64,000 bases of DNA from Methylocystis sp. (GTDB taxonomy: Bacteria; Pseudomonadota; Alphaproteobacteria; Rhizobiales; Beijerinckiaceae). Below are positions 1-64,000 of the stretch, one piece after another. The notes beneath the pieces are model-generated. The model was not told the DNA's origin and did not search any database. It saw only the letters and a program-made list of their open reading frames with translations. Both the position numbers and the translations under genes were made by a program. The DNA lies in contig JACOUB010000058.1 of the NCBI GenBank assembly GCA_016178015.1, forward strand, positions 17,395 to 81,394. The letters run 5' to 3'. Positions within the stretch are counted from its first letter, which is position 1, and each line of letters opens with the position of its first letter.

Positions 1-1001
1 TCGGTGGCGCCGAGTTCGTTTAAGACCTCGCGCGTGGTGCGCTGCATGATCTTGGCGCGCGGATCGTAATTTTTGTAGATGCGATGCCCAAAGCCCATGA
101 GCCGGAACGGATCGTTCTTGTCCTTGGCCTTGGCGATGTAACGGGGAATGCGCTCGGGCGTGCCGATTTCGGCCAGCATCTTCAGCACCGCCTCGTTGGC
201 GCCGCCGTGCGCCGGCCCCCACAGCGAGGCGATGCCGGCGGCCACGCAAGCGAAGGGATTGGCGCCGGACGAGCCGGCGAGCCGCACCGTCGAGGTGGAG
301 GCGTTCTGCTCGTGGTCGGCGTGCAGGATGAAGATGCGGTCGAGCGCGCGCGACAGCACGGGATTGACCTTGTAATCCTCGCACGGCACGGCAAAGCACA
401 TGCGCAGGAAATTCGACGTGTAGTCGAGATCGTTCTTCGGAAAGACGAACGGCTGGCCGATCGAATATTTGTAGGCCATGGCGGCGAGCGTCGGGATCTT
501 GGCGATCATGCGCGTCGAGGCGATCATCCGCTGCTTGGGATCGCTGATATTGGTCGAGTCGTGATAAAAGGCCGAGAGCGCGCCGACCGAGGCCACCATC
601 ACCGCCATCGGATGCGCGTCGCGGCGGAACCCTTGGAAGAAGCGCGCCATCTGCTCGTGCACCATGGTGTGGCGCGTAATGCGATAGTCGAAGTCGGCCT
701 TTTGCACCGCCGTCGGCAATTCGCCATAGAGCAGCAGATAACAGGTCTCGAGGAAATCGCCGTGCTCGGCCAGTTGCTCGATCGGATAGCCGCGATACAG
801 CAGCACGCCCGCGTCGCCGTCGATGTAGGTGATCTTGGATTCGCAGCTCGCCGTCGAGGTGAAGCCGGGATCATAGGTGAACATGCCCGTCTGGGCAAAG
901 AGCTTGCCGATATCGACGACATCGGGTCCGACCGTTCCGTGTTTGACGGGCAGATCGATCGACTTGTCGCCGATATGGAAGGAACCAGATGTCGCCGTCA
1001 T
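1..1001 (-). CDS. gltA: Type II citrate synthase; 3' end runs off the window; alternative start at 1034
   Basis: Not in ORF track (no stop in window). Manual translation gives [23 protein letters not shown] and [18 protein letters not shown]. Confidence 0.96.
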
Positions 1002-1169
1002 CGCCCCCACCTTCTCTCGTGATGGTCCAGACATGCGGCGCCCCTTTCTCGCGTTGGGCAGGAAATAGATTTGGGTCAGCTGGTCGTCATCGGCTGCTTG
1101 TGCGTCGCAAAAAAGGCTATAGCATGGCTCACGCCTGTTCAAGCGACGCTCGATGCGCGTCGGCGGCCG

Positions 1170-2591
1170 TCAGCCTGCTTGATCAGCAAGACGCGCCAGG
1201 CTCTCCTCGCGCCCGAGGATCGCCAGCACTTCGAATATGCCGGGCGAAGTGGCGCGGCCAGTCAACGCCGCGCGCAAAGGCTGCGCGATATCGCCGAGCT
1301 TGACGCCGCTTAAGGCGGAGATGTCACGCACGGCGTTCTCCGTCGTTTGCGCGTTCCACTCCTCGATCGCCGCCAGACGCGGCGCGAGTTCCGCCAGCCT
1401 GGCGCGCCCGCCCTGCGCCAGGATTTGCGCCGCCTTGGCGTCGAGCGCGAGCGGGCGTTCGGCGAACAAAAACGCTGCGCCGTCGAGCAGCTCGACAAGA
1501 GTCTTGGCGCGCGCCTTAAGGCCTGGCATGGCGGCGGCGAGCTGCGCTTTGCGAGAGGCGTCGAGCTTGCTGGCGATCTCCTTGCCGCCAGGCAGAAAAG
1601 GCAGAGTGGAAAGGAGCGCGTCCAACAGCTCGGCGTCGTCGCTGGCGCGCAGGTAATGGCCGTTCATATTCTCGAGCTTGGCGAAGTCGAAACGGGCCGG
1701 CGAGCGATGCACCTGGGCGAGATCGAAGGCCTCGATCATCTCCTGGGTCGAGAAGAATTCCTTATCGCCCTGGCTCCAGCCCAGACGCACCAGATAGTTG
1801 CGGAGCGCCGCGGGCAGATAGCCCATGGCGCGATAGGCGTCGACGCCGAGCGCCCCGTGCCGCTTGGAGAGTTTCGCGCCGTCGGGGCCGTGGATGAGCG
1901 GAATATGCGCCATGGCCGGCGCCCGCCAGCCGAGCGCATCGTAAATGTGCATTTGGCGCGCGGCGTTGGTGAGGTGATCGTCGCCGCGGATGATCTGCGT
2001 GACGCCCATGTCGTGATCGTCGACGACCACCGCCAGCATGAAGGTCGGCGTGCCGTCCGAGCGCAGCAGCACGAAATCGTCGAGGTCTTTGTTTGGAAAT
2101 ACGACGCGGCCCTGCACGCCGTCCTCGATCACCGTCTCGCCGTCTTTCGGCGCTTTCAACCGGATGACCGGCGCGGCGCCGGGCGGGGCGGTCTTTGGAT
2201 CACGATCGCGCCAACGACCGTCGTAGCGCGGCGGACGACCCTCCAGCCGCGCGTGTTCGCGCATGTCCTCGAGCTCCTGGGCGGTGGCGAAGCAGCGATA
2301 GGCCTTGCCCTGCGCCAGCAGTTCCTCCGCTACCTCGCGATGCCGATCGGCGCGCGCGAACTGATAGACGATATCGCCGTCCCATTGCAGTTCAAGCCAC
2401 GCGAGACCGTCGATGATGGCGTCGATCGCGGCGCGCGTCGAGCGTTCGCGGTCGGTGTCCTCGATGCGCAGCAGCATGCGGCCGCCGTGCTTCCTGGCGT
2501 AAAGCCAATTGAACAGAGCCGTGCGCGCGCCGCCGATATGGAGGAAGCCGGTGGGCGAGGGAGCGAAGCGGGTGACGACGTCTTGCGGCAT
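1170..2591 (-). CDS. gltX: Glutamate--tRNA ligase
   Basis: [14 protein letters not shown] (HIGH) and KLSKRH (KMSKS) motifs. Confidence 0.98.
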
Positions 2592-3130
2592 TTGATGAAC
2601 CGGTCAGGATGAATGGAGGATTTACACCAACAGCGAAGCAGGCTTACCCGTCATATGTGGACGCGCCCCGGTGAAAAGCGCGAGCAAGAAGAAAAGCGAA
2701 GCGGCTCATCCGTGAGTGCCGAAATGCCATTGACCGCGCCAATCCGGCATAACAGAAGCGCCGCGCGGCCCGCACGCCGCGACCTCGCGTAAGGCCTATG
2801 CCTGCTCCATGATTGTCGAGACGCTCCTAATTTTTGCTCAGGTCGCGGCGCATGGGCCGTCGAGATCGGCTTAACCCGCGCGTTATGACTCTTTTGGGGC
2901 GGCGCTTCTGATCGCGGTCGCGATTGCCGGTGTGATCGTGAGGTTTTCCTCGAAACCTTGGCCTTTTTGGCGCATCATGATTGCGTTCCTGGCGGTCTTC
3001 ATGATTTGCTTGGTCATTCAACTGGTCTTCACGCGTTTTTATTGAGCTCGCCGGACCCGAGCGATCATATGGCGTTCTGGCGATCACGAACGCTCGATGA
3101 CAATTAGGCAAGTGGAAAACAGTCCTGAAC

Positions 3131-3880
3131 ATGAAATCCAGTCCATCGAACTTCGCGAGCGACGGCGCACCGGCGCGAATGGCTTTCCGAGTGCCGATAG
3201 GCGCCCGTCTACTTACGCTCTTTGGGGTCTTGGCGCTCGGGGGCGTCAGCGCGTTCCTGACGTTTGTCGCCGTCTTCTTCCTCTTGGTCCTGAGACAGTG
3301 GGCGTTTGGCGCGCTCGTTGTGGCGCCGGTGGCTTGTTTCATCGCCGGCCTTGCCGGCTATGGCGTGCGGGATCTGCGGGGAAAATGGGGTCTGCGCGTG
3401 ACTTCGGAAGCCGACTCGCTCGTCCTTGATTTGCCAGCGGGACGGTCGCTCATACACCATCCCGCCGCGCAACACGCGAAAATTCCGTATGCTGAGGTAG
3501 AAGCGATCGAATCCCGGCTCGAGGCCTATGGCTCCCTCGGGATGGGAATGATGCAGCGAGCATACGTGTTGCGACGCAAGGACGGGGAATTGATTTTTCT
3601 GTTCGAGGACCGCGCAATCGGGACACCATTTGAGAGTTCGCTCTTTCCAAGGCTCGCGGCCGACATTGCGGCGCGGGCAAACGTCCCGCTTCGCGACCAT
3701 GGCATGGTCGAGGGAGGCGGTGGATTCTTGGGGGTCTGGGGAGCACAAGCCCCGGATTGGGCGGCGCCCCCACTGCCCCTATCCCGCCAATACAGAATTT
3801 GGCGAGAAGTGGTGATAACTGGCGTGCTTCCCATTCCTATCATTTTGATCGCGTTGCTAGTGAGGCTGCTCAGCGGTTAG
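3131..3880 (+). CDS. Hypothetical membrane protein
   Basis: 249-aa ORF with two N-terminal and one C-terminal hydrophobic segments; no family recognised. Confidence 0.7.
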   Translation: MKSSPSNFASDGAPARMAFRVPIGARLLTLFGVLALGGVSAFLTFVAVFFLLVLRQWAFGALVVAPVACFIAGLAGYGVRDLRGKWGLRVTSEADSLVLDLPAGRSLIHHPAAQHAKIPYAEVEAIESRLEAYGSLGMGMMQRAYVLRRKDGELIFLFEDRAIGTPFESSLFPRLAADIAARANVPLRDHGMVEGGGGFLGVWGAQAPDWAAPPLPLSRQYRIWREVVITGVLPIPIILIALLVRLLSG

Positions 3881-3999
3881 ATGTGAACCGAGCTTGAGGC
3901 GAGAGTCGCGATCCGACCGACGTCGCAAGCTTGGGCAAGTCCTCCAGGCTGCGGTCTGCGGTTCAGGCTCTTTCGGAGATCGACGGGAGCGCGCCCGTC

Positions 4000-4662
4000 T
4001 CACTTCACCAGCGGGGCGAGAATTTGGTTGAGGTCGGCGACGGTGATTTCGCCGGCGTACTTGTCGCCATTTATGAAAAAGGTGGGCGTCGAGCCGATGC
4101 CGAATTTTTCGGCGGCGCGATCGCGGACCTGGCTGACGTTCTCGTAAAGCTGACGGTCCTTCAAGGTGGTTTGGAAAACCTCCTGGCTCATGCCGGTCTG
4201 CTTGAGGACGTTGGCCAGCGCATCGAGAGGTTTCTCGACCGAGGCCCAGTTCTTCAGCTGAGCGAACAGCAGATCGACGACCGCGTCGCGCTTGTCGCCA
4301 GAGGCGCGCGCCAGCATGAATGCGGCCGTCGCCAGAGGATCGAGCGGGAATTCGCGCAAGATGAACTTCACCTTGCCGGCGTCGATGTAAGTCTTCTTCA
4401 GCGTGGGATAGACGTCTTTATGGAACGTCGCACAATGGCTGCAGGTCATCGAGGCGTATTCGACGATGGTGACAGGGGCGTCCGCCTTGCCCTCGACGAT
4501 GTCGGGGAGGGCGTTCGCCGCCATCAGTTCGTCTAAGGGGACTTTTCCGATCGCGGCCCTTTCCGCCAGGGCGGCGCCCGCGAATCCGACAATCGCCCAA
4601 CAACCAGCGGCCGCGATGATGGCGCGACGGGAGAGACGAGAACGAAGATTAGCCATGGTCAT
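4000..4662 (-). CDS. DsbA-family thioredoxin-fold protein
   Basis: EYASMTCSHCA (CxxC), FILREFPLD, GSTPTFFING; Arg-rich N-terminal signal. Confidence 0.92.
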   Translation of the reverse strand: MTMANLRSRLSRRAIIAAAGCWAIVGFAGAALAERAAIGKVPLDELMAANALPDIVEGKADAPVTIVEYASMTCSHCATFHKDVYPTLKKTYIDAGKVKFILREFPLDPLATAAFMLARASGDKRDAVVDLLFAQLKNWASVEKPLDALANVLKQTGMSQEVFQTTLKDRQLYENVSQVRDRAAEKFGIGSTPTFFINGDKYAGEITVADLNQILAPLVK

Positions 4663-4752
4663 TCCGTGAATCGAGGAACCAACCAGCATAGACTGCGCTA
4701 TGAATGTGGCAATCTGATTTGTGTCGGAACGGCCATCGCCGCTCGGCGGTCG

Positions 4753-5370
4753 TCAGCGCGAATAGTATTCGATGACGAGGTTCGGCTCCATCTGCACCGG
4801 ATAGGGCACTTCCGACCGTAGCGGCACGCGCGACAATTTGGCCGTCAGCTTGGAATGATCGACTTCATAGAATTCGGGGACGTCGCGTTCGGCGAGATTG
4901 ATGGCCTCGAGAACCGTGACGGCCTGTTTCGAGCTCTCCTTGACTTCGATCACATCGCCCGGCTTCACCAGGAAGGAGGCGATGTTGACGCGCTTGCCGT
5001 TCACCTTGATGTGGCCGTGGTTGACGAACTGGCGCGCCGCGAACACGGTCGGCACGAATTTGGCGCGGTAGACGACGGCGTCGAGACGGCGCTCCAGCAG
5101 GCCGATGAGATTGTCGCCGGAGTCGCCCTTCATGCGGATCGCTTCCGCGTAATATTTGCGGAACTGCTTCTCCGAGATGTTGCCGTAATAGCCTTTGAGC
5201 TTCTGCTTGGCCTTGAGCTGGGTGCCGAAGTCGGAGAGCTTGCCCTTGCGGCGCTGGCCATGTTGACCTGGGCTGTATTCGCGCCGGTTCACCGGGCTCT
5301 TGGGGCGGCCCCAGATATTCTGGCCCATGCGGCGATCAATCTTGTATTTGGCTTCGGCGCGCTTCGTCAC
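4753..5370 (-). CDS. rpsD: 30S ribosomal protein S4
   Basis: GTG start; [41 protein letters not shown]. Confidence 0.98.
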
Positions 5371-5690
5371 TCTTATCGTCCCTCTTTTTTGCTTCCGATC
5401 GGCGGCGCACGAAGCGACGGGACGCGCGCTCCCTCGAGGGAGGCGCCATCGAACCACGTTCTCGCGCGCCGGAAAATCCTGGGCGTCAGGAACGCGCCCT
5501 CCTCTGCCGGTTTGCAGTCCGGCCGACAGGCTGCTTGCTCAATCGTCTTACAAAAGAGCAGCGGCCACGGGTGCGCGTCGGCTCAAGCCATGCCCGAGCC
5601 GAACAGCAGGCGGCTTACCGGCGAGCGGGCAAAGAGTCAAGAAAAACGCGCCGCCCTTCGCCAATCGCCGCGCGATTCGCCGAGCGGTCC

Positions 5691-6029
5691 TCAGAACTGG
5701 AACTGCCCGTCGCTCCAAGGTTGATCGAGCCGGCGCGGCAGCGTCTCGCCCCCGAACCAGCTGCGCTGATTGGCCTGGATCGGGTCCTGATTGAAAAAGG
5801 TCTGCTCCACCACGTAGCGATTCCTGCTGCCGACGGGAACTTTGGTTCCCGGATCCAGGAAACTGCGGCGTTGGACCACCAGCGGCGGGCGCCCGTAATA
5901 ATAAGCCTCGCTGGCGTAGCCATAGGCATGGCCATGGCGCCGCGGCCTGGCGAGCGCGTCGCTCGTCCCCATTACAGCGCCGAGGCAGGCGAGGCCCAGC
6001 GATAGTTTCACCAAGTTGTGCATCATCAT
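5691..6029 (-). CDS. Small, probably secreted hypothetical protein
   Basis: Signal-peptide-like N-terminus (LSLGLACLGAVMGTSDALA-RP) followed by an aromatic-rich mature region. Confidence 0.7.
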   Translation of the reverse strand: MMMHNLVKLSLGLACLGAVMGTSDALARPRRHGHAYGYASEAYYYGRPPLVVQRRSFLDPGTKVPVGSRNRYVVEQTFFNQDPIQANQRSWFGGETLPRRLDQPWSDGQFQF

Positions 6030-6138
6030 CACCCAATCAATCGACGTTCCGCGGCCATGATAGCCGATTGTCCGGGAAAACGATACAGCTTCGATCGCGC
6101 TTTCGCGCCCCGCGCCCGGATCAAGCCGGATATAGGAC

Positions 6139-7038
6139 TCAGCGCGCGGAGGTCGAGCGCGAGCGCTTGGCGGCGGGCGGATGAGGATGGGCGTCGGGCG
6201 GGTTGGCCTTGGCCGCACCGGGCGCGCCGCCGCAGGCGAGGCGCCCCTGCGCGCGCTCCAGCTCCGCCTTCAGGAAGAACTGCTCCATCGCTTTGTTGTC
6301 GCCGCTCGACGCGAATTCGAGGCGATCGAGGATGCAGGTTAAAGCCGGTCGGTCGATCGGTTGCCCCGTCGCGCCGCATGCGAGGCCCGCGATCTCCAGC
6401 GACGGTTTCGAATCCACCAGCCGGACTGCGAGACAGTCGCGTTCGCTCAAAGAGGAGGCCGCGTCGGCGTGCGACAGGCGAATGTCGGCTGCTTCGAAGG
6501 AACCGAAGCGAGAGGCGAGAGGGCTGGGCTGGCCGATGCGCATGACGGCGAGGCCCGCCTGCGCAGCATGGCGCGTCATGTCGAGAAAGAAGTCGGAATT
6601 CATGAGTTTTTCGCCGCCGGCTTGGTGGATATGGAGACGCAGATAGGCGCCGCCGCCGTCGAACTCGCCAAGGACGAGCGCGTCCTCGCGGTCGCCGCCC
6701 TGCTCCAGCCGCAGCACGGAATAGGTATTTTTGGCATGGGCGAATTCGGGAGCGGAGAGAGCGAAAGCCGCGGGGCGCCCGGCTGCGCCGGCCGGCATGG
6801 CCACGCTCGGCGCGAACGCCGTCGCGATCGCCGCGGCCGTCGCGGCGGCGGTCACGGGCGGCGGCGGCGATTTCGCTTGTTTGACCGCAGACTCGCCGGC
6901 AAATGGGAGGGCGAGGGTCAAGACGACAATCGCCGCTATGCCGATCATCGAAGCGGCGAGGCTTCCTAAAGGGCGGGCGCGCAACGCGCGCGGCGCGGCA
7001 AAAGCGGAAAGTTCTTCGCTGGCAATGGTCCAACTCAT
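6139..7038 (-). CDS. Hypothetical membrane-anchored protein
   Basis: 299-aa ORF with one N-terminal TM segment and a Pro/Ala linker. Confidence 0.7.
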   Translation of the reverse strand: MSWTIASEELSAFAAPRALRARPLGSLAASMIGIAAIVVLTLALPFAGESAVKQAKSPPPPVTAAATAAAIATAFAPSVAMPAGAAGRPAAFALSAPEFAHAKNTYSVLRLEQGGDREDALVLGEFDGGGAYLRLHIHQAGGEKLMNSDFFLDMTRHAAQAGLAVMRIGQPSPLASRFGSFEAADIRLSHADAASSLSERDCLAVRLVDSKPSLEIAGLACGATGQPIDRPALTCILDRLEFASSGDNKAMEQFFLKAELERAQGRLACGGAPGAAKANPPDAHPHPPAAKRSRSTSAR

Positions 7039-55120: not shown

Positions 55121-55240
55121 CTCCCACTCGATTGTTTCCTAGATCGATAAGCTATTGAATTCGGCTATAATTTATATGCTTCAAAGTGACTTTACCGTCA
55201 GCTTTACCGTCATAAAAACCGGCTTTTGATTTCATTGACT
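55121..55240. mobile_element. Island attachment end: guaA-type core plus arm-type repeats
   Basis: Minus strand ACAATCGAGTGGGAG (TIEWE, as at the guaA 3' end) at 55121-55135; TACCGTCA-N4-TACCGTCA at 55193-55212; IHF-like ATTCAATAGCTTA between them. Confidence 0.75.
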
Positions 55241-55526
55241 TTATTCCGCGATTTTAGCGGCATGCATTCTGGCATCTACGTCGTCACCAAAGGCGAAATG
55301 TTAGCGCAGACGGGGCCGAGCCGATACTGGATTTTGGTCATGACCGCCTCGATTTTGTCGTGCCGAACCGCGGTCAGCGCGTTCCCACCGCGCTACCGCA
55401 CGCCGTAATGAATCCTCGGCTTATGCCACTTATAGCAAAGCCATCGTCACAACGACTTTGCTGATGTCGCCGCCAGTCATTAGCTCGCGTTCCGAGCCGC
55501 CAGGCGCTTGTCACGGTCCACGATCA

Positions 55527-55617
55527 CGGCACCTCAAGACGACTAAATAGCTTATCTCGGCACCTCAAGATGACATCGATTGAATCTTCGCCCAAAACAG
55601 GGCATGGTGCCTCAAGA
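55527..55617 (+). promoter_or_regulatory. Direct repeats upstream of HTH-hipA (putative operators)
   Basis: CGGCACCTCAAGA at 55527 and 55558; TGGTGCCTCAAGA at 55605. Confidence 0.6.
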
Positions 55618-55652
55618 TTCCGCTATCTCGACTTTTGGAGCCTTGACGCGCC

Positions 55653-55994
55653 ATGGCTGCCCGCAACCCACTCCTCGCCGCACCGCCGTATCAGGTTGAG
55701 CAGGCATTAAAGACGCTCGGCGCCAACCTGCGCACGGCGCGGTTACGTCGAAACCTGTCAATCGAGGACATCGCCGCGAAGATCGGCGTCGGCCGTCACG
55801 TGGTGGCGGATGCCGAGAAGGGAAAACCATCGACGGGCATCGCCATCTATGCCGGGCTGCTTTGGGCTTTCGGTCTGACCGAGCAACTGGCGCGCATCGC
55901 CGACCCCGATGCGGATGAGGAAGGTCGCCTGCTGGCGAAACGAAGCGAGCGGGTTCATGCGCGTAGCGCAAAGGCGCTCGACAATGACTTCTAA
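55653..55994 (+). CDS. XRE-HTH protein (HipB-like antitoxin)
   Basis: LGANLRTARLRRNLS.ED.A.K.GV, overlaps the hipA start. Confidence 0.88.
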   Translation: MAARNPLLAAPPYQVEQALKTLGANLRTARLRRNLSIEDIAAKIGVGRHVVADAEKGKPSTGIAIYAGLLWAFGLTEQLARIADPDADEEGRLLAKRSERVHARSAKALDNDF

Positions 55995-57261
55995 GACGCG
56001 CGGCGCCACCGAGTGCTTCGTCTACATGACGCTGCCGGGAGAGACTGAGGCGGTCACGGCCGGCAGGTTCGAACTCGCCACCAGCCGGCAAGGCGTGGTG
56101 ACGGGACGGTTCGTCTATGGGCGGAGCTATCTCGCCCGCCCGAATGCCGCGGAGATCGACCCCGTCGAACTAAAGCTCGGCTCGCGCACTTATGAGACGG
56201 TCTTGATGAAAGGCGTGTTCGGGGCCCTGCGCGACGCCGGTCCCGACTATTGGGGGCGGCGCGTCATTGAGAAGCACGCCGGGCTCCCCGAGTTTGGGGA
56301 ACTCGATTACCTGCTCCACTCGCCCGACGATCGCGCCGGTGCGCTGAGCTTCGGCCTCAACCAAACGCCGCCGGCGTCGATGCGCCGGTTCAATCAGACG
56401 ATCGATCTTGAGAAGCTCCAGGTGCTCGCGGACGCGCTCGTCCGCGATGAGCCTCCCGCGCCGGGCGTGGGTGCGGCAGACCTTGCGCAGGCGGAAGACC
56501 TGCTCCTCGTCGGCACCTCCATGGGTGGCGCTCGTCCGAAAGTCGTCGTCGAGGATGCCGAGGGTCTTTGGCTCGCCAAATTCAACCGACCCGACGACAA
56601 GTGGAACGTGGCGCGCGTCGAGCACACGATGCTAACGCTCGGCCAGGCCTGTGGCCTCACCACGGCCGAAAGTCGTGTCGCCGCCATCGGCGATCGTGAG
56701 GTCCTGCTCGTTAAGCGATTTGACCGAGAGAAGGCGCCGGGCGGCTATTTAAGGGCCCGCATGGTGAGCGCGCTCACCATGCTGCGCGCCGATGACAGTC
56801 TGCAATCCCGCGAGCGCTGGTCCTACATCCGGCTAGCCGAAGAATTGCGCCGCATCAGCGCCGACCCGAAGCGTGACGCCGCCGAGCTCTTCCGCCGCAT
56901 GTGCTTCAACGCCTTGATCTCGAACATCGACGACCATCCCCGCAACCACGCGGTTATCGCGCCGGATCGGGATTGGCGCCTGTCGCCTGCTTATGACCTG
57001 ACACCTTCTTCGCCGGTCAGCATCGAGCGACGCGATCTCGCCATGGCTTGCGGAGACCTGGGCCGATATGCGAACGCCGGCAACCTCATGAGCCAGGCCG
57101 CGCGCTTCCTTCTATCAACGGATCAAGCGGCTTGCATCGTCGATGACTTGGAAGCACGGGTTCGCTCGACGTGGTACGAAGTCGCGCGCGAATGTGGCGT
57201 GAGCGACGCCGATTGCGCTCAGATCGCAGGAGCCTTCACTTATCCTGGGTTCAGAGCTTGA
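55984..57261 (+). CDS. HipA-family Ser/Thr kinase toxin
   Basis: GTSMGGARPK, WLAKF, LLVKRFDR, NIDDHPRNH, RLSPAYDL. Confidence 0.93.
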   Translation: MTSKTRGATECFVYMTLPGETEAVTAGRFELATSRQGVVTGRFVYGRSYLARPNAAEIDPVELKLGSRTYETVLMKGVFGALRDAGPDYWGRRVIEKHAGLPEFGELDYLLHSPDDRAGALSFGLNQTPPASMRRFNQTIDLEKLQVLADALVRDEPPAPGVGAADLAQAEDLLLVGTSMGGARPKVVVEDAEGLWLAKFNRPDDKWNVARVEHTMLTLGQACGLTTAESRVAAIGDREVLLVKRFDREKAPGGYLRARMVSALTMLRADDSLQSRERWSYIRLAEELRRISADPKRDAAELFRRMCFNALISNIDDHPRNHAVIAPDRDWRLSPAYDLTPSSPVSIERRDLAMACGDLGRYANAGNLMSQAARFLLSTDQAACIVDDLEARVRSTWYEVARECGVSDADCAQIAGAFTYPGFRA

Positions 57262-57288
57262 AAGAACGACAAAGCCGGAGGATCTGTA

Positions 57289-59943
57289 ATGGGGGCGGTC
57301 GATGAAATCCTGGATTGGTCCGCGACCAAGCTGACACCTTGGCGTCAAGACGCACTTCGCCGACTGGCAGGCTCATCTGCGGTCACTGCACAAGACGAAA
57401 GCGAACTGCTTGATCTGATCAAAGAGAAAGCGGGCTTTCCTCTGGCCGCAAAGCCACCGGCGCCGACGCCGTTGACCAAAGCTCACCTCTCAGCCGTCAC
57501 GAGCGGATCACCTCTCCAGATCAAAGGCATTCGTAACGTCAAGAACGTCAACCGACTCGTGCCGGCGGCCGCACTGGTGTTCGCGCCCGCCGGGCTGACC
57601 GTCGCCTACGGACGGAACGGCAGCGGCAAAAGCGGCTTCGTCCGCATTTTTCGCACCGCCTGTCGCACCCGCACTGACAATCCAGCCAAGCTCAAGGTGT
57701 TGGCTGATGTCTACGGCTCGGGCGGGGGGCCTCAGGAAGCGGAGATCGTCGTCGACCTGGGCAGCGGCGATGTCGTCGTGCCTTGGACCGCCGGCGCGCC
57801 CGCCTCGGAGACCCTTTTGCAGGTCGCCGTCTTCGACAGCAGCGCAGCCCAATTCTATGTCGACGGCGGCAATCAGATTCAGTTTCTTCCGTTCGGCCTC
57901 GCCCTGCCTCACAAGCTCAACGAGCTTTGCCTCGCCCTCAGGGATAAGCTGGACGTTGAGCGCAGGCCCATCACTGATCAGATCGCCCTCGTCACCGTGG
58001 CCTTCGAGACGCCCAGATCGACGAAGGCCCAGACCTTCTACTCCGGCCTCAGCGGCAAGACGACAGATGCGCAGATCGGCGCAGTGGCCACGTTTTCACC
58101 GGATGACGAGAAACGCATTGACGAGTTGACGCGTCTGCTTGCCGCTAACACCGCCTCGGCAGCAGACGTGACCGCGCTTTCCACATGGGTCCAAAACCTA
58201 GCGTTCGAGTGTGCCAGCCTTGATCAGGCATTCAGCGACACGCAGCTCGACGGATATCGCACCCTCAAGCAACAGGCCATCGACGCGCGGACAGCCGCAG
58301 GCACAAAGGCGGCTGATCTCTTCTCAAGCGAGCCTCTCCCTGGTGTCGGTGGTGAGACCTGGCGGCGGCTGTGGCTTGCTGCCCGCGACTATTCAATCGC
58401 GGACGCCTATGCCGGCCGCGAGTTTCCCGTCCTCAGCACGCCGGACACGACCGAGACCTGCGTTCTTTGCCAGCAACCGCTCGGCGCTGAAGCGTCGGAC
58501 CGCATGGGCCGCTTTCAGGCGTTTGTCAGTGGATCTCTCGCTGAAACTGCTGACCAGGCTGAAACGGTGGTCACCCAGGCGATCACGTCCCTGCCCCGGA
58601 TCGAGATCTTCGCGTCGAAGGAGTGGGCGACCCGGCTCGAACAGATCCGTAAGCGCAATGCGGAACTAGCGAATACGCTCACGTCCTTCAGGAAAGACAT
58701 GGAAGCCAGACGCGCTATCGCCCTGGCCTCGCTCCAGACTGTTGAGGCAACACCGCCTCCCTTAGCCGCCGGCGCTCTGGTCTCCCCGCATAGCACCTTG
58801 CAGGACTTGTCAGCGCTTCTGTCCGCCGAAGCCGAGGCCTTGGCGAAGGCCGATCATAGTGGACAGCGCGCGAAGCTGGAGGCCGAGCGGTCTGAGCTCG
58901 CCGATCGCAAGATCCTCACGGCAGGCCGCGATCGCGTGATGAAACGCCGGGACCTTCTCAAGGAGGATGCGCTTTACACCGCAGCGCTTGCTGAGGTTCA
59001 GACGAAGGGCATTACCCAAAAGGCAAATGAACTCGTCGATACGCATCTGACGAAGATCGTGACAAACCATTTCGAGGTGGAACGCAAAACTTTAGAAATT
59101 ACGCACCTCAAGGTCGGTTTGGCGCGAAAGAGCGGACAGACCAAGGCCGCATTCCAAACCAATCCGGGCACCACGCTAACAAAATTGACCTCCGATATCC
59201 TCAGCGAAGGCGAGCAGCGCGCGCTCGCACTTGCGGCATTTCTAACGGAAATCGCTGTGACGGAAGGAGCCGGCCCGATCGTGATCGACGATCCTGTTTC
59301 ATCCTTGGACCGTGATCGCGGATTGAAGGTCGCAGCCCGCATCGCGGCCGAGGCGCAGAAGCGCCAGGTAATCGTCTTTACGCACGACCTGATCTTCTTC
59401 AACGACCTATGCCGAGAAGCCGATGATCTCGGCGTTGCGACCGAAACGATCGCCCTCTTCGCCGACGGCGCCAATGCGGGCAAGGTCGATCCCGCCGGGG
59501 TGTCGTGGAAAGGGCTGAGCGTGAGCAAGCGCCTTGCACGGATCCGGAACGACTTCACGCCGCTGAAGAAGCTCCACACGTCGAGTCCGTCGGACTACGA
59601 ATTCAAAGTGAAGCACCTCTATGGGCGCCTGCGAGACAGTTACGAGCGCCTCGTGGAGGAACACATCTTTTGCGACGTGGTCCGGCGCGGCGTCGACAGG
59701 ATCGAGACGCAAAAGCTGCGCATGGTGCATCTATCCGACGCGCTCGCGATTCGATTCCACGACGGCATGACGAAGGCGAATACCCACAGCCATGACAATC
59801 CGGCGTCAGACACCGTCTCGGTCCCGGATCCGGCCGAATTCGAAGCCGACTTGGCCTTCATCGAGCAGCTCATCACAGACCTCAAAGTGGAAAGCGCCTC
59901 GGCGGAAGGCAACCGTCCCAGCATGAAGCCGAAAAAGGATTAG
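57289..59943 (+). CDS. Rad50/RloC-like ABC ATPase with coiled coil, zinc hook and C-terminal helical domain
   Basis: GRNGSGKS, CVLCQQ (CxxC), LSEGEQR, IDDPVSSLD, FTHD, C-terminal KANTHSHD. Confidence 0.85.
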   Translation: MGAVDEILDWSATKLTPWRQDALRRLAGSSAVTAQDESELLDLIKEKAGFPLAAKPPAPTPLTKAHLSAVTSGSPLQIKGIRNVKNVNRLVPAAALVFAPAGLTVAYGRNGSGKSGFVRIFRTACRTRTDNPAKLKVLADVYGSGGGPQEAEIVVDLGSGDVVVPWTAGAPASETLLQVAVFDSSAAQFYVDGGNQIQFLPFGLALPHKLNELCLALRDKLDVERRPITDQIALVTVAFETPRSTKAQTFYSGLSGKTTDAQIGAVATFSPDDEKRIDELTRLLAANTASAADVTALSTWVQNLAFECASLDQAFSDTQLDGYRTLKQQAIDARTAAGTKAADLFSSEPLPGVGGETWRRLWLAARDYSIADAYAGREFPVLSTPDTTETCVLCQQPLGAEASDRMGRFQAFVSGSLAETADQAETVVTQAITSLPRIEIFASKEWATRLEQIRKRNAELANTLTSFRKDMEARRAIALASLQTVEATPPPLAAGALVSPHSTLQDLSALLSAEAEALAKADHSGQRAKLEAERSELADRKILTAGRDRVMKRRDLLKEDALYTAALAEVQTKGITQKANELVDTHLTKIVTNHFEVERKTLEITHLKVGLARKSGQTKAAFQTNPGTTLTKLTSDILSEGEQRALALAAFLTEIAVTEGAGPIVIDDPVSSLDRDRGLKVAARIAAEAQKRQVIVFTHDLIFFNDLCREADDLGVATETIALFADGANAGKVDPAGVSWKGLSVSKRLARIRNDFTPLKKLHTSSPSDYEFKVKHLYGRLRDSYERLVEEHIFCDVVRRGVDRIETQKLRMVHLSDALAIRFHDGMTKANTHSHDNPASDTVSVPDPAEFEADLAFIEQLITDLKVESASAEGNRPSMKPKKD

Positions 59944-60160
59944 CTCGTTCAGGCGTGCGTCACTCGTGGTATGATACTGGTCGCCACATGCCGCCTCCAG
60001 GCGATGGCGGCGCTTCTATTGTCCTGCGGGTGTTGTCGCGTCATTGCACGGCGCTAGCGCCGGTAGCGGACCACGTCGATTCCAGCCCATCGGAAATCCG
60101 GATCTCCGAGCGTCCTGCGCCGCGCTTCTCGACGCGCACTTGTATGGCAATTCTGTCAAT

Positions 60161-60447
60161 CGCCGCTTCCCGATGCACGTCCTGCCGAATGGCTTCCATC
60201 GCATTCGCCACTACGGGCTCCTGGCCAACGGTAGCCGCGCGGACAACCTCGCCAAAGCGCGCGCGTTGCTGAACGTTCCGAAGCCGGACACGATCCCGGA
60301 CGATCCCAAATCTTCTGACGCAGCCGAGCTTCCGACACTCTCGCGTCCATGCTCATGCTGCGGCGGCCGCATGCTCATCATCGAGACATTCGCGCGAGGA
60401 TGCGAGCCGAAGTACCGGCCGGCCGCCGCGCGTCTCGTGATCAGGAT
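60161..60447 (+). pseudogene. IS91-family transposase C-terminal remnant
   Basis: RRF.MHVLPNGFHRIRHYGLLAN, PCSCCGGRM.IIETFARG; ends at ...IRI where it joins an att-like sequence. Confidence 0.85.
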
Positions 60448-60462
60448 CCTTCGATTGTCTCC

Positions 60463-61700
60463 TAGTGGCCCGAGTCATTCAAACCGAGCGTATAGCCTTT
60501 TTAGCTTAACGCGGGCGTTTGCGGTTGTGAATTGCCAGTCGGCCTTGGCGTGATGTTTGTTGCGGTTGTCCTGCCAGGCCGCGACCTCCTCGATCAGTTT
60601 CGACTTGTCGGGAATGCGGCGATCCAGACATTGGGCTGCGAGAACGCCGAGTTCGGACTCCGCCATGTCGAGCCAACTGCCGTGCTTTGGCGTGTAATGC
60701 CATTCGAACCGCTCGCTCAGCCGGCGCGCTTCGGCGGCGGGGAAGGCCGCGTAAAGCGACGCCGCCGTGTGCGTCGAGAGATTGTCCTGCACCAGCACGA
60801 TCTTCGCGGCGCCAGGAAAATGCGTGTCGGACAAATCCTTGAGCGCATGAGCGTAATCGACCGCGGCGTGGCGATCGGTGACCTTGACGCGACGCCAGCC
60901 TTCCAGTGGCGCGAACATCATGAACAGATTGGCCACGCCATTGCGTTCGTATTCGTAATCATGGCGCGCCTTGCGCCCCGGCGCGGCGGGAATAGGAGCG
61001 CGCGTCTCGATGATCATTTGCTTCGAGGTCTCGTCGAGACACACGACGGGCCACTGCGGATCGCGTGGTCGTTGATAGACTTCCAGCACGTCTTCCATAT
61101 TGGCGACGAAGCCCGCGCTAGCTTGCGGCGCGATCACCCATTGCGGCTCGAGATGCGGCTCGAGAATGTTTTTTTGAGCGTCCGCCCGATCGTGTTGTCG
61201 CTGGCTTTCTCGACGATGTTCAGTTCGACGACTTTCTCTTCGAGCAGGCTCAGAGTCCATCTGGCGTAGCCCGCCGGAGCAGGCCCACATGTCAGCGCGA
61301 TCAGTTCTGCTTCCGCCGCGCCGTCGAAAATCCGCGGCCGGGCGGAGTTCGGATTGTATTTGCGGGTCAGGACCGCCTCGAACCCCTCCTCGACCAATTG
61401 CCGTCTCGTCCGCTCGATATTGGCGACGCTGGTGTCCAGAGCCTCGGCGATCCGGCTGTCGCTCCAGCCTTCGCCCGCCTCCGACACATCCGCCTTCAAG
61501 GATGCGCGCCTTCTTCAGCAACTGCGCCGAACGCCTGCCCGCGCGGATCAAAGCCGCAAGTTGCGCGCGCTCGTCCGCGCTCAGACGCACCACGTACTTC
61601 TTGACGGCAATCTCTTTCCCGGCCACGAATCACCTCCATCGCTGCTTCGCAGCGACAGTGATTCAGAAGTTCCCGTCAGGATCAATGACGTGAGCTACTA
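60463..61700 (-). mobile_element. IS630-family insertion sequence
   Basis: TA at both ends (CTAG target); imperfect TIRs TAGTGGCCCGAGTCATT / TAGTAGCTCACGTCATT. Confidence 0.92.
60475..61626 (-). pseudogene. IS630 transposase, probably frameshift-damaged
   Basis: DDE region intact (VCLDETSKQ, VQDNLSTH, SWLDMAESE). HTH region lies in another frame from about 61499. A7 slippery run at 61169-61175. Confidence 0.8.
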
Positions 61701-61800
61701 GCCTCATACGCGATTGGTTTTGCGTAGCTTTTTTCTGCGTCAGCATTCCGATACCGTCAAACATACCGTCAGAAAACTATGCTGCTGAAAAGATTGACTT
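61701..61800. mobile_element. Second att-like end (right part; left part at 60451-60465)
   Basis: TACCGTCA-N4-TACCGTCA at 61752-61771, at the same spacing from CTAG as at the first end. Confidence 0.75.
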
Positions 61801-61924
61801 ATTTTTCCAACCTCGCCGCAAGCATCTTTCCTAGTCTATCGCTTTCCAGATTTCGCGAAATACGCGGGCGACGACATAGCGATCAGCGGACGATCACGCG
61901 GCGAGCGTCGTTCAATTGTGAGGT

Positions 61925-64000
61925 TCATGCAACCAGCGACTCACGTCTCAATTCGTGAATTTGTGCGTCGGGAACAATGTGTCGGGCCGCTTCGATCACG
62001 TAGTCGTGGTGCGTGAACAGGATTACTTGGGTATGACGCGCGAGCTCCGCTAGATACCGAATGCCCGCCTCAGTGCGCACTGCATCCGACGAAGCGAACA
62101 AGTCATCGGCAAGAAAGGGCATCGGCTCGGAGTCGCGAGCACGCAGCTCTAGTGCGGCGATCCGGAGTGCTAGCCAGAGCTGGTCGCGCGTACCCTCGCT
62201 CATCGCCTCCACACGACACGCGACGCCGTTGGCGCGCAGTGCGATCAGACGCGGATCGTTCGGCTTTTGATAGTCAACATCGAGCTTATTGAAGTCGTCC
62301 GGCGGCTGACTGCCAGCGATCGAAATAAAGATTTCGTTGGCACGCGTGACAAGCGGGCCCTCGTTGGCCTGGCGATAGCTCTCAACTGCCTTGTCGAGCA
62401 GGGCCGCCGCAGTTGTGAGTCGCATCCAACGCTGCGTAAGCATACTGACCTGCGCCGCCTCGTTGCGCGCTGTATGGGTTGCAGTCAGGTAGCCCTCCCG
62501 GCCTTTTAGCTGCTCTAGCGCTCGCAGCGCCTGCTCCCGCACGCGGACGGCCTCCTCCAAGTCTGTGTCGAGCCGGATACGGTCGGTCGCATTGAGATTA
62601 ATCGCTTCGCGAAGCTGGTCGCGATCGGCAGCGGCCAATTCGCTGCGCAAGCCTTCCTCGGCGATGCCCTCGCCGGCCTCAACGAGCTTCCTGAGCTCTG
62701 TCTCAATTCCGTCGGCAAGCAGGCGCTTACGGTCACTGCTGGCGATCGTCACGATCACATCCTCATCAGCCGTAAGGTGAACCTCGTTCCTGAGCCGCAC
62801 GCAGGCAGCATCAGCGAGGCTTTGGTCCTCGTCGGCTGTTTTCGCGGTCTCCCGGGCGTCGATCAGATTTTTTTCGGCTGTTTTAATTTCTTGGGCGAGG
62901 CCCTTCGCGACCTGCAGGGCCCTGTACAGCGCAGCTGGCCATGCATGCCATTCGCCACCTGGATTGAGATTCGCGACTACCTCAGCGCCGAGCGTCTCCA
63001 GCACTGCATCGACAGCATCCCGATGGCTTTTGATATCTTCTCGGATGCCCTTCAGCAGGCGCTGTGCCTCCGCGCGTCGACCGACTTCCTTAGCGAACAG
63101 ATCCCATATCCCGAGGATGGCAGTCGCTTCCTCTGGCGTAGACCCGGGCGCCAAATTGATGGTTGGCATCTCCGTGACCCAGCGCGCGCGCCACTCAGCC
63201 AAGCGCTGCTCCGCGGTGATGACGGCATCGTCAGCACGCTGATATTCTTTGGTTCGGCGTAAGATCGCGCCGCGTAGCTGACCGGCCTTCGTCCAACGTT
63301 CAGTCGATCGCGTAACAGCCAGATTCACCCGTTGCTCCGCGACCTCCGAATCATCGCCCGCCGCCACCGGTGCACCAACCAGCACCGCAGCCCGCTGAAG
63401 ATGCGCCCACGCCGTTTCGAAAATCGCCCTCGCTTGATCTCGCTCCGCTTCGGCCGCTCGGCGGGCATCGATCCCCTCAAGGATTTTATCCTTCCGCCCG
63501 AGCCAAGTGAGCATGAGTTCGGGTGCGTCGATTTCACCGGCGAACCCCGTTCCAGCCCACAGCTCTCGCCAAGCCTTCTCGTCAGCCCCTTGGCGAGCAA
63601 CGGCATCATCTTGCGCTTTTCGGGCCAAGCCGAGCGCCTGATCGAGACGCGAGCGCTCGATTTCGATACGTTTCTGTTGCGCCAGCAGTTCGGCGCCTTC
63701 GACCCGGTGATCAACGAGATCATCCGCGGCGCGCAAGAGCCCCTCGTAGCCGTCAAGCGTGTTGAACGGGCTTAGCCTCCCTGCCGCCGTATCGTGGCGA
63801 ATGGCTATCCAGCTCTCGTCTCGCTCGCCCCTTGCCAAACGCACCGCATTGGACGTCGGAACGGCAGCTCCCAAGCTAAGATCCTCAAGGTCATTCTTGT
63901 GGCGTTCGATTTGGGCTTCCAGATCTGCGATGCGCTTGTCAGCAGCGTCCACGGCTCCGACGCTCCTATCAAGTTTGACCTTCGCCGCCCGAACCGCGTC
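61925..64000 (-). CDS. YhaN-like AAA/SMC-type ATPase, C-terminal part; start lies outside the window
   Basis: Long coiled coil; MSEGTRDQLWLALRIA, PFLADDLF, TQVILFTHH; frame open to position 64000. Confidence 0.88.
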   Translation of the reverse strand, partial: DAVRAAKVKLDRSVGAVDAADKRIADLEAQIERHKNDLEDLSLGAAVPTSNAVRLARGERDESWIAIRHDTAAGRLSPFNTLDGYEGLLRAADDLVDHRVEGAELLAQQKRIEIERSRLDQALGLARKAQDDAVARQGADEKAWRELWAGTGFAGEIDAPELMLTWLGRKDKILEGIDARRAAEAERDQARAIFETAWAHLQRAAVLVGAPVAAGDDSEVAEQRVNLAVTRSTERWTKAGQLRGAILRRTKEYQRADDAVITAEQRLAEWRARWVTEMPTINLAPGSTPEEATAILGIWDLFAKEVGRRAEAQRLLKGIREDIKSHRDAVDAVLETLGAEVVANLNPGGEWHAWPAALYRALQVAKGLAQEIKTAEKNLIDARETAKTADEDQSLADAACVRLRNEVHLTADEDVIVTIASSDRKRLLADGIETELRKLVEAGEGIAEEGLRSELAAADRDQLREAINLNATDRIRLDTDLEEAVRVREQALRALEQLKGREGYLTATHTARNEAAQVSMLTQRWMRLTTAAALLDKAVESYRQANEGPLVTRANEIFISIAGSQPPDDFNKLDVDYQKPNDPRLIALRANGVACRVEAMSEGTRDQLWLALRIAALELRARDSEPMPFLADDLFASSDAVRTEAGIRYLAELARHTQVILFTHHDYVIEAARHIVPDAQIHELRRESLVA

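Follow-up and report, generated by a model that had tools for sequence, protein, structure and literature searches.

We analysed a window of 64,000 nucleotides (the whole stretch of DNA presented here, to which all positions refer) from a groundwater metagenome-assembled genome (MAG) of Methylocystis sp. It contains two attachment-type ends in the same (direct) orientation, which we call end 1 and end 2. On its left, end 1 is flanked by chromosomal genes (hpnLIJK) and by two toxin-antitoxin pairs, one Phd/PIN and one HigB/HigA-like, with the stop codon of higA 8 nt from end 1. The two pairs, at 53.6-55.1 kb, may themselves be remains of older islands. The outer unit enclosed by the ends (55128-60465) holds only HTH, HipA and AAA_13 ATPase genes and a fragment of an IS91-family gene, with no recombination genes. 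No tRNA gene, integrase or guaA is present in the window. The features discussed here are as follows.

55121-55135, minus strand: guaA-tail remnant reading TIEWE, without a stop codon, with the core TCCCACTC at 55122-55129
55128-55245, plus strand: P-arm module of end 1 (P arm 1), comprising the 15-mer TCGATTGTTTCCTAG (55128-55142), an IHF-like site TAAGCTATTGAAT (55148-55160), the arms TACCGTCA-N4-TACCGTCA (55193-55212, reading TACCGTCAGCTTTACCGTCA) and TTGA-N5-TTGACTT (55226-55241, with TTGACTT at 55235-55241)
55653-57261, plus strand: HTH antitoxin-like and HipA kinase genes (Pfam HTH_31/HTH_3 and HipA_C), the first cargo past the P arm
57289-59943, plus strand: gene for an 884-aa AAA_13/SMC-like ATPase (Pfam), the final gene of the outer 5.3-kb unit
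60013-60023, plus strand: CTTCTATTGTC, the left copy of an 11-bp direct repeat with CTTCGATTGTC at 60449-60459 (10/11 identical); the match to a relative described below ends at 60015
60016-60448, plus strand: segment missing from that relative, whose right part (60161-60448, perhaps from about 60105) is a 3' fragment of an IS91-family Y2 transposase gene
60451-60465, plus strand: half site of end 2, reading TCGATTGTCTCCTAG, in which TC (the final two bases of the core) is followed by the arm-side GATTGTCTCCTAG, with CTAG (the IS630 target) at the right edge
60465-61698, minus strand: IS630-family element of 1234 bp with a 383-aa DDE_3 transposase ORF (60475-61626), flanked by a duplicated TA
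61701-61801, plus strand: remainder of the P-arm module of end 2 (P arm 2), with an IHF-like site TACGCGATTGGTT (61707-61719), the arms (61752-61771, reading TACCGTCAAACATACCGTCA), GAAAACTATGCTGCTGAA and TTGACTT (61794-61800)
61925-64000, minus strand: 3' part of a yhaN-type ATPase gene (1173 aa in full), the first gene of the inner element

A 19.3-kb contig from the same sample extends the locus about 16 kb rightward of the window. On it, yhaN, sbcD, bilDCBA, UvrD/PDDEXK and sigma/HTH genes follow one another on the minus strand, and ardC, a ParB-like gene and two further genes come after them. The part equivalent to window positions 64.9-80.5 kb (L134:1-15552) encodes SbcD/YhaN, a Bil ubiquitin-like system, a 1126-aa UvrD/PDDEXK protein, ArdC and a 697-aa ParB-like protein. 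The inner element is thus large and defence-rich, and probably transferable, ArdC and ParB-like genes being typical of transferable elements. Neither an integrase nor guaA was found in the approximately 16 kb recovered to the right (L133/L134), and guaA was not seen beside hpnL in distant relatives. We also considered YhaN as a marker of att ends and rejected it; its relatives sit by IS5, JetD, SIR2 or another ATPase, with no arms.

The initial annotation had proposed that an IS630 element hides a second att end homologous to the first, and this was borne out by both the motifs and their coordinates. In end 1 the 15-mer is followed by 50 nt, the arm pair and TTGACTT. In end 2 the IS630 element follows directly after the 15-mer, and past it come 50 nt, the arm pair and TTGACTT. 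Excision of IS630 in silico gives TCGATTGTCTCCTAG-50 nt-TACCGTCA-N4-TACCGTCA, in register with 55128-55245, so that the gap, the arm repeat and the TTGACTT motif agree as first described, TTGACTT starting 22 nt beyond the arms in both. Aligned without gaps, end 1 and the rebuilt end 2 are identical at 76 of 118 positions (z = 9.5), against 31.8 matching positions on average, and 54 at most, in 20,000 shuffles; the runner-up place within the 64-kb window scored 47. The paired-arm pattern occurs at two sites only in the 64 kb, namely the two ends, and none of 100 shuffles contained any match. All four copies of the TACCGTCA octamer in the window lie within the two arm pairs.

We then compared these ends with public sequences. 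An arm-pair scan of one genome per species returned at least 120 loci, and 14 among those listed carried a stop codon and YTCCCACTCNAT 60-61 nt upstream. Read on the opposite strand, the stop and YTCCCACTCNAT give the guaA end (...IEWE-stop). A narrower pattern (TTGTYTCC, 50-56 nt, arms) was found on 82 genome contigs and 117 metagenome contigs, where less than one match would be expected by chance according to our own rough calculation. The strict pattern of 15-mer, gap and arms had no match in the genome-contig collection, which apparently excludes the window's own genome. Approximately 190 public ends from genomes and metagenomes share the guaA tail, 60-61 nt and then the same arm repeat. 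This signature places the ends in a large and widespread family of guaA-targeting islands, among whose cultured members are Undibacterium sp. GrIS 1.8, Ampullimonas aquatilis LMG 28208 and Sulfuriferula sp. GW1. The tripartite elements of Mesorhizobium (IntG at guaA) were considered as a further possible parallel.

Both window ends conform to the family. In each, 60 nt separate ..GAT from TACCGTCA-N4-TACCGTCA, which is the family spacing, and 16 alphaproteobacterial ends match both in register at the IHF-like YAA-N4-TTGRWT, the arms, GAAAnCTnnGCTGnTGA and ATTGACTT, as the initial annotation would predict of related guaA islands. A Caulobacteraceae locus (L255) resembles end 1, with TTGATTTCATTGACTTTAT in common, and L315 resembles end 2, with GAAAACTACGCTGCTGAA in common. 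A stop codon with the full tail (YTCCCACTC) is present in 163 of 201 family ends, and nearly all others carry variants such as CCCATTC; end 1 has the guaA tail and core, though without the stop codon.

In two further loci from the arm-pair scan (L028 and L125), a stretch holding the same octamers separates the start of a P4-type integrase gene from the stop of an intact guaA. The family integrases carry Arm-DNA-bind_3, Phage_int_M and Phage_integrase domains and are P4-type wherever visible. Lambda and P4-type attP sites combine a core with an IHF site and with arm-type sites bound by the N-terminal domain of the integrase, and it is from lambda and P4 integrases that binding at arm-type sites is extrapolated here. 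The window ends resemble these attP sites in having paired direct 8-bp repeats at a distance of 60 nt from the core and, in the interval, an IHF-like site, and Arm-DNA-bind_3 integrases lie beside the same octamers in the family, the integrase and IHF sites of the window being predicted from sequence. Because the octamers adjoin a P4-type integrase and guaA in other loci, the TACCGTCA repeats are plausible candidates for arm-type integrase sites on both arms.

Not all family members carry an integrase. Among 76 ends with enough flanking sequence, 10 lie no more than 3.5 kb from guaA and lack one, these being HipBA, AbiE-like or PIN cassettes, and 7 of the 76 have HipA no more than 2.5 kb from the arms. 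Eight mini-islands of 1.5-3.8 kb at the guaA 3' end (L146, L269, L313, L156, L231, L093, L176, L271) carry only a toxin-antitoxin pair (HTH-HipA, AbiE-like or PIN), with a complete distal guaA tail and a P arm and without an integrase. Two loci hold integrase-less units in tandem. In L145:4092-7955, a unit of HipA and AAA_14/DUF4143 is enclosed by two like ends, both complete and directly oriented, at a distance of 3.8 kb. In L324 (Undibacterium sp. GrIS 1.8; minus strand, 508-6616), two such complete, direct ends 6 kb apart enclose HipA and a TOTE-type primase-helicase (AEP-helicase). The inner guaA tails of both arrays are complete. In layout, L145 and L324 correspond, with their ends intact, to what is seen in the window, whose recombination-gene-free unit is likewise enclosed by direct att-type ends.

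The 15-mer had been taken for the recombination core, which our mapping did not uphold. In 12 small islands that show both junctions, only TCAYTCCCACTCNAT is common to the distal and the proximal junction, and polymorphisms on either side (12 distal/proximal pairs) place the exchange point within TCCCACTC. For example, L146 reads TCAT...AAT at the distal junction and TCAC...GAT at the proximal one. Read on the other strand, TCCCACTC is GAGTGGGA, which has been defined as the GIsul2 core (PMC9376610). By this mapping, the 15-mer is the arm side of the true core and opens with the core's final two bases.

End 1 retains the complete core, with CCT in place of the family stop codon; it reads CCCCTCTCCCAC where other family ends read CCCCTCACTCCCAC, a difference that looks like a 2-nt loss in a remnant released from selection. 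At end 2 the core is reduced to TC, two of its eight bases, and GGATCCT of the IS91 fragment replaces the remainder. None of 201 family ends shows a truncation of this type. The break falls within the 8-bp crossover region and is therefore most likely the product of an integrase-mediated exchange between the junction and a secondary site. Use of secondary sites is documented for the GIsul2 integrase, and the secondary-site event that had been suggested at the outset gains support from the position of the IS91 fusion (PMC9376610). The description of the 5.3-kb block as bracketed by like ends holds for their homology but not for two competent sites, since the inner one lacks six of the eight crossover bases and is split by IS630. 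These bases were already missing before, or apart from, the arrival of IS630, which had been credited with disabling the inner site.

The IS91 fragment was recognized as Y2_Tnp (Pfam) and matched residues 307-401 of the 404 of a Microvirga IS91 transposase (tblastn). Homology runs through residue 401 and stops at 60448, two bases short of end 2, in agreement with the abrupt cut noted initially. The final three codons and the ori end are absent and the gene is interrupted on both sides; what remains of the element is a remnant (residues ~307-401/404) with no full Y2 gene and neither an ori nor a ter end. The closest full IS91 relative, on a Microvirga plasmid (L012:25-1842), has a tyrosine-recombinase gene immediately upstream of its Y2 transposase gene.

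The IS630 element has a DDE_3 transposase and imperfect inverted ends (GTGGCCCGAGTCATT / GTAGCTCACGTCATT), and its TA duplication (60463-60464 and 61699-61700) lies inside CTAG, the preferred target of IS630; on these features it is a member of that family. Both of its junctions were found on Logan contigs of runs X1, X2 and X6. At window position 61497, IS630-like contigs of X3, X6 and X7 carry two extra bases (AA or AC), relative to which this copy has a 2-nt gap in the stretch of the transposase gene that encodes the N-terminal part. The flank of another copy hinted that the IS630 end might extend into GTCTCC, which we rejected as the right end has no matching inverted sequence.

We searched 12 sequencing runs for other forms of the locus. 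The window's form is present in three runs of its own study, and the join between P arm 2 and yhaN also occurs in an unrelated soil run, X8 (61723-61873 contiguous). In three runs of another groundwater study (X3-X5), contigs join 60015 straight to 61802. This relative is without 60016-61801, that is, the IS91 piece, the half site, IS630 and P arm 2, and its HipA/ATPase and yhaN blocks are contiguous. On its 10.2-kb contig (L011), identity to the window left of the joint is 95-98% over the last ~300 nt of the ATPase gene and the 72 nt after it, and right of the joint 98.5% over 807 nt; over 58582-59700, within the ATPase gene, it is 75-91% in 100-nt windows. The search for strains without IS630 that the initial annotation had recommended thus yielded a relative missing the whole of 60016-61801 but no IS630-free allele in the 12 runs, which also contained no excised circle or empty form. 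Either the relic was deleted in the relative or it was inserted in the window's lineage.

The right joint of the relative is at most 2 nt from the edge of the conserved P-arm module. On the left, the CTTCTATTGTC/CTTCGATTGTC repeat brackets the IS91 fragment, its right copy lying at the half site. With edges of this kind, the extra segment looks like a discrete unit more than a random deletion. The relative differs elsewhere too. In L011, L002 and L333, sbcD and bilD are separated by a 1.7-kb HTH-HipA pair, which is absent from the window's strain (L134:1861-1862), and L011 has a 715-bp deletion inside yhaN (window 62609-63323). A guaA-tail-like 10-mer near the extra HTH-HipA pair was attributed to chance; about two such matches are expected in the DNA searched, and no arms accompany it.

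On balance, we read the second end as a dead internal junction left by the tandem accretion of two family elements, with slightly better than even confidence. We favor this reading because the geometry and motifs of the two ends are identical far beyond chance; because approximately 190 public ends share the guaA tail, the 60-61 nt and the arm pair; because the crossover in 12 islands is the GIsul2 core, of which only TC is kept at end 2; and because tandem like ends around integrase-less units occur in L145 and L324. The suggestion of two related islands in tandem is supported accordingly, with both ends of the family type and tandem integrase-less units recurring in those two loci.

Under the tandem reading, end 2 would be the arm-side half of an attR-type junction of the guaA-3'-end island family, with TACCGTCA repeats recognized by the arm-binding domain of a P4-type tyrosine integrase. 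The outer element would be the integrase-less 5.3-kb unit, made up of P arm 1, HTH-HipA and the AAA_13 ATPase, and the inner element would comprise P arm 2, YhaN/SbcD, Bil, UvrD-PDDEXK, ArdC, the ParB-like protein and further genes. Where the two meet, the 3' end of the IS91 transposase gene would have taken the place of the guaA-tail half of the core, through an integrase and a secondary site, either with deletion of the outer element's integrase end or with the inner element nested in IS91. IS630 would later have inserted in CTAG 12 bp rightward, shifting the IHF-like site and the arms 1.2 kb from the core remnant. The inner site would then be dead, excision being left only to the composite island via end 1, and a sister lineage would have lost the relic altogether, with fusion of the two cargo blocks. 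Several observations count against the tandem reading. Integrase, P' arm and guaA are absent from the window and the ~16 kb beyond; a 97-98% identical relative has no second end, and its joint falls at the module edge and a core-like 11-mer; the yhaN relatives of other lineages adjoin other defence genes and no P arm; end 1 lacks the stop codon found in most family ends; and the sequence comes from a MAG whose short-read contigs break within IS630.

Some of these observations would be accommodated if the island had originally been continuous as in the relative, and a 550-bp junction fragment of another family island had been inserted later between the ATPase gene and yhaN, followed by IS630. 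This piece would begin with ~90-145 nt of unassigned sequence and continue through the IS91 fragment and the half core to P arm 2. The clean join of 60015 to 61802 in X3-X5, with 97-98% identity on both sides, is what such an insertion predicts, as are the coincidence of the right edge of the piece with that of the conserved P-arm module, the 10/11 copy of the half-site 11-mer at its left edge and the finding that other yhaN modules are not beside a P arm. A known mechanism is lacking, however, for a piece that has no IS91 ends (the gene is cut on both sides) and half a core only, and the target duplication typical of transposons is absent. Moreover, the direction of the P arm fits everything rightward being its island, and the P arm 2-yhaN join recurs in the unrelated soil sample X8. 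We consider later insertion unlikely, at perhaps one chance in a handful.

A precedent for a working internal site is GIsul2, which has three att sites (attL, attLR and attR) and an IS91-like CR2-sul2 unit (Zhang et al. 2022, PMC9376610; Harmer et al. 2017 cited therein). Its internal attLR lies beside the IS91-like gene, and the distal CR2-sul2 unit, between attLR and attR, is excised and integrated separately by the GIsul2 integrase (PMC9376610). The two loci are alike in their target, the guaA 3' end, and in the core, GAGTGGGA being TCCCACTC on this strand; in both, an internal att-type site adjoins an IS91-family gene and delimits a distal integrase-less unit. They differ in that the window is a Methylocystis MAG sequence with toxin-antitoxin and defence genes, whereas GIsul2 carries sul2 and ars; the internal site of the window lies at the IS91 3' end, that of GIsul2 at the ter end upstream of the gene; the former lacks six of eight core bases and is split by IS630; and excision has been shown for GIsul2, while the window is known from its sequence alone. 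In addition, tblastn with a family integrase (L028) gave ~35% partial matches on unannotated stretches of enterobacterial plasmids.

By analogy, the inner site of the window might have worked as an attLR-like site until IS630 arrived, so that an integrase could move the 5.3-kb HipBA/ATPase unit alone. Integrase-less units with their own P arm do recur at guaA, and the HipBA unit of one mini-island is 81% identical between hosts, compared with ~66% for guaA there. Yet the attLR of GIsul2 retains the full GAGTGGGA, against two of eight bases here, the inner tails of the L145 and L324 arrays are complete, and no read or contig of the 12 runs showed an excised or empty form. A functional inner site of this kind therefore seems quite improbable to us. 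That the resemblance of the ends is due to chance in AT-rich spacer DNA, or to a contig chimeric across IS630, is hardly credible: short-read contigs do stop inside IS630 and the sample contains several IS630 copies, but the alignment score and the arm pair went unmatched in shuffled sequence, the TA duplication is in place, and the joined halves regain the exact 60-nt family spacing with motifs in register, which is not expected of a chimera and argues that the join is correct, so that both accounts are excluded as far as the available data reach.

Tandem accretion has a further parallel in Streptococcus thermophilus, where ICESt1/ICESt3 and the related CIMEs reportedly accrete in tandem, site-specifically, at fda; cis mobilization is said to have been demonstrated experimentally for this family. 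The window resembles the CIMEs in having an att-flanked unit without recombination genes beside a complete element and in that decayed internal sites fix the cargo. Phylum, integrase family and target gene (fda) are different, and cis mobilization in the window is conjectural. Accretion and cis-mobilizable elements (GIsul2 attLR, CIMEs) are already known, and the window shows how islands grow and fuse, not a new type of system.

If the tandem reading holds, the locus would be a sequence-dated example of defence-island building, in which related elements are added serially at one attachment site and the inner junctions are then eroded (IS91 fusion, IS630, loss in the sister strain) until the mobile units form one fixed block. 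The att signature (guaA tail, 60 nt, TACCGTCA-N4-TACCGTCA) is possibly worth more than the locus itself. It picks out about 200 public island ends, including many small toxin-antitoxin cassettes that lack an integrase, delimits islands and allows tests of mobilization in trans. It is conceivable, though we rate it as rather doubtful, that the short integrase-less P-arm units (HipBA, AbiE and VapC cassettes and the 5.3-kb unit) are satellites captured and moved in trans by the integrases of resident guaA islands. Were this so, the guaA 3' end would serve throughout Proteobacteria as a place where toxin-antitoxin and defence genes are stacked as cassettes, and the window would represent one stack caught between capture and fusion.

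A lone arm pair was also seen in L103 (6206-6491), ~190 nt left of a full guaA tail and P arm and next to GST and MFS genes of the chromosome; it has the appearance of a scar left by an older island end.
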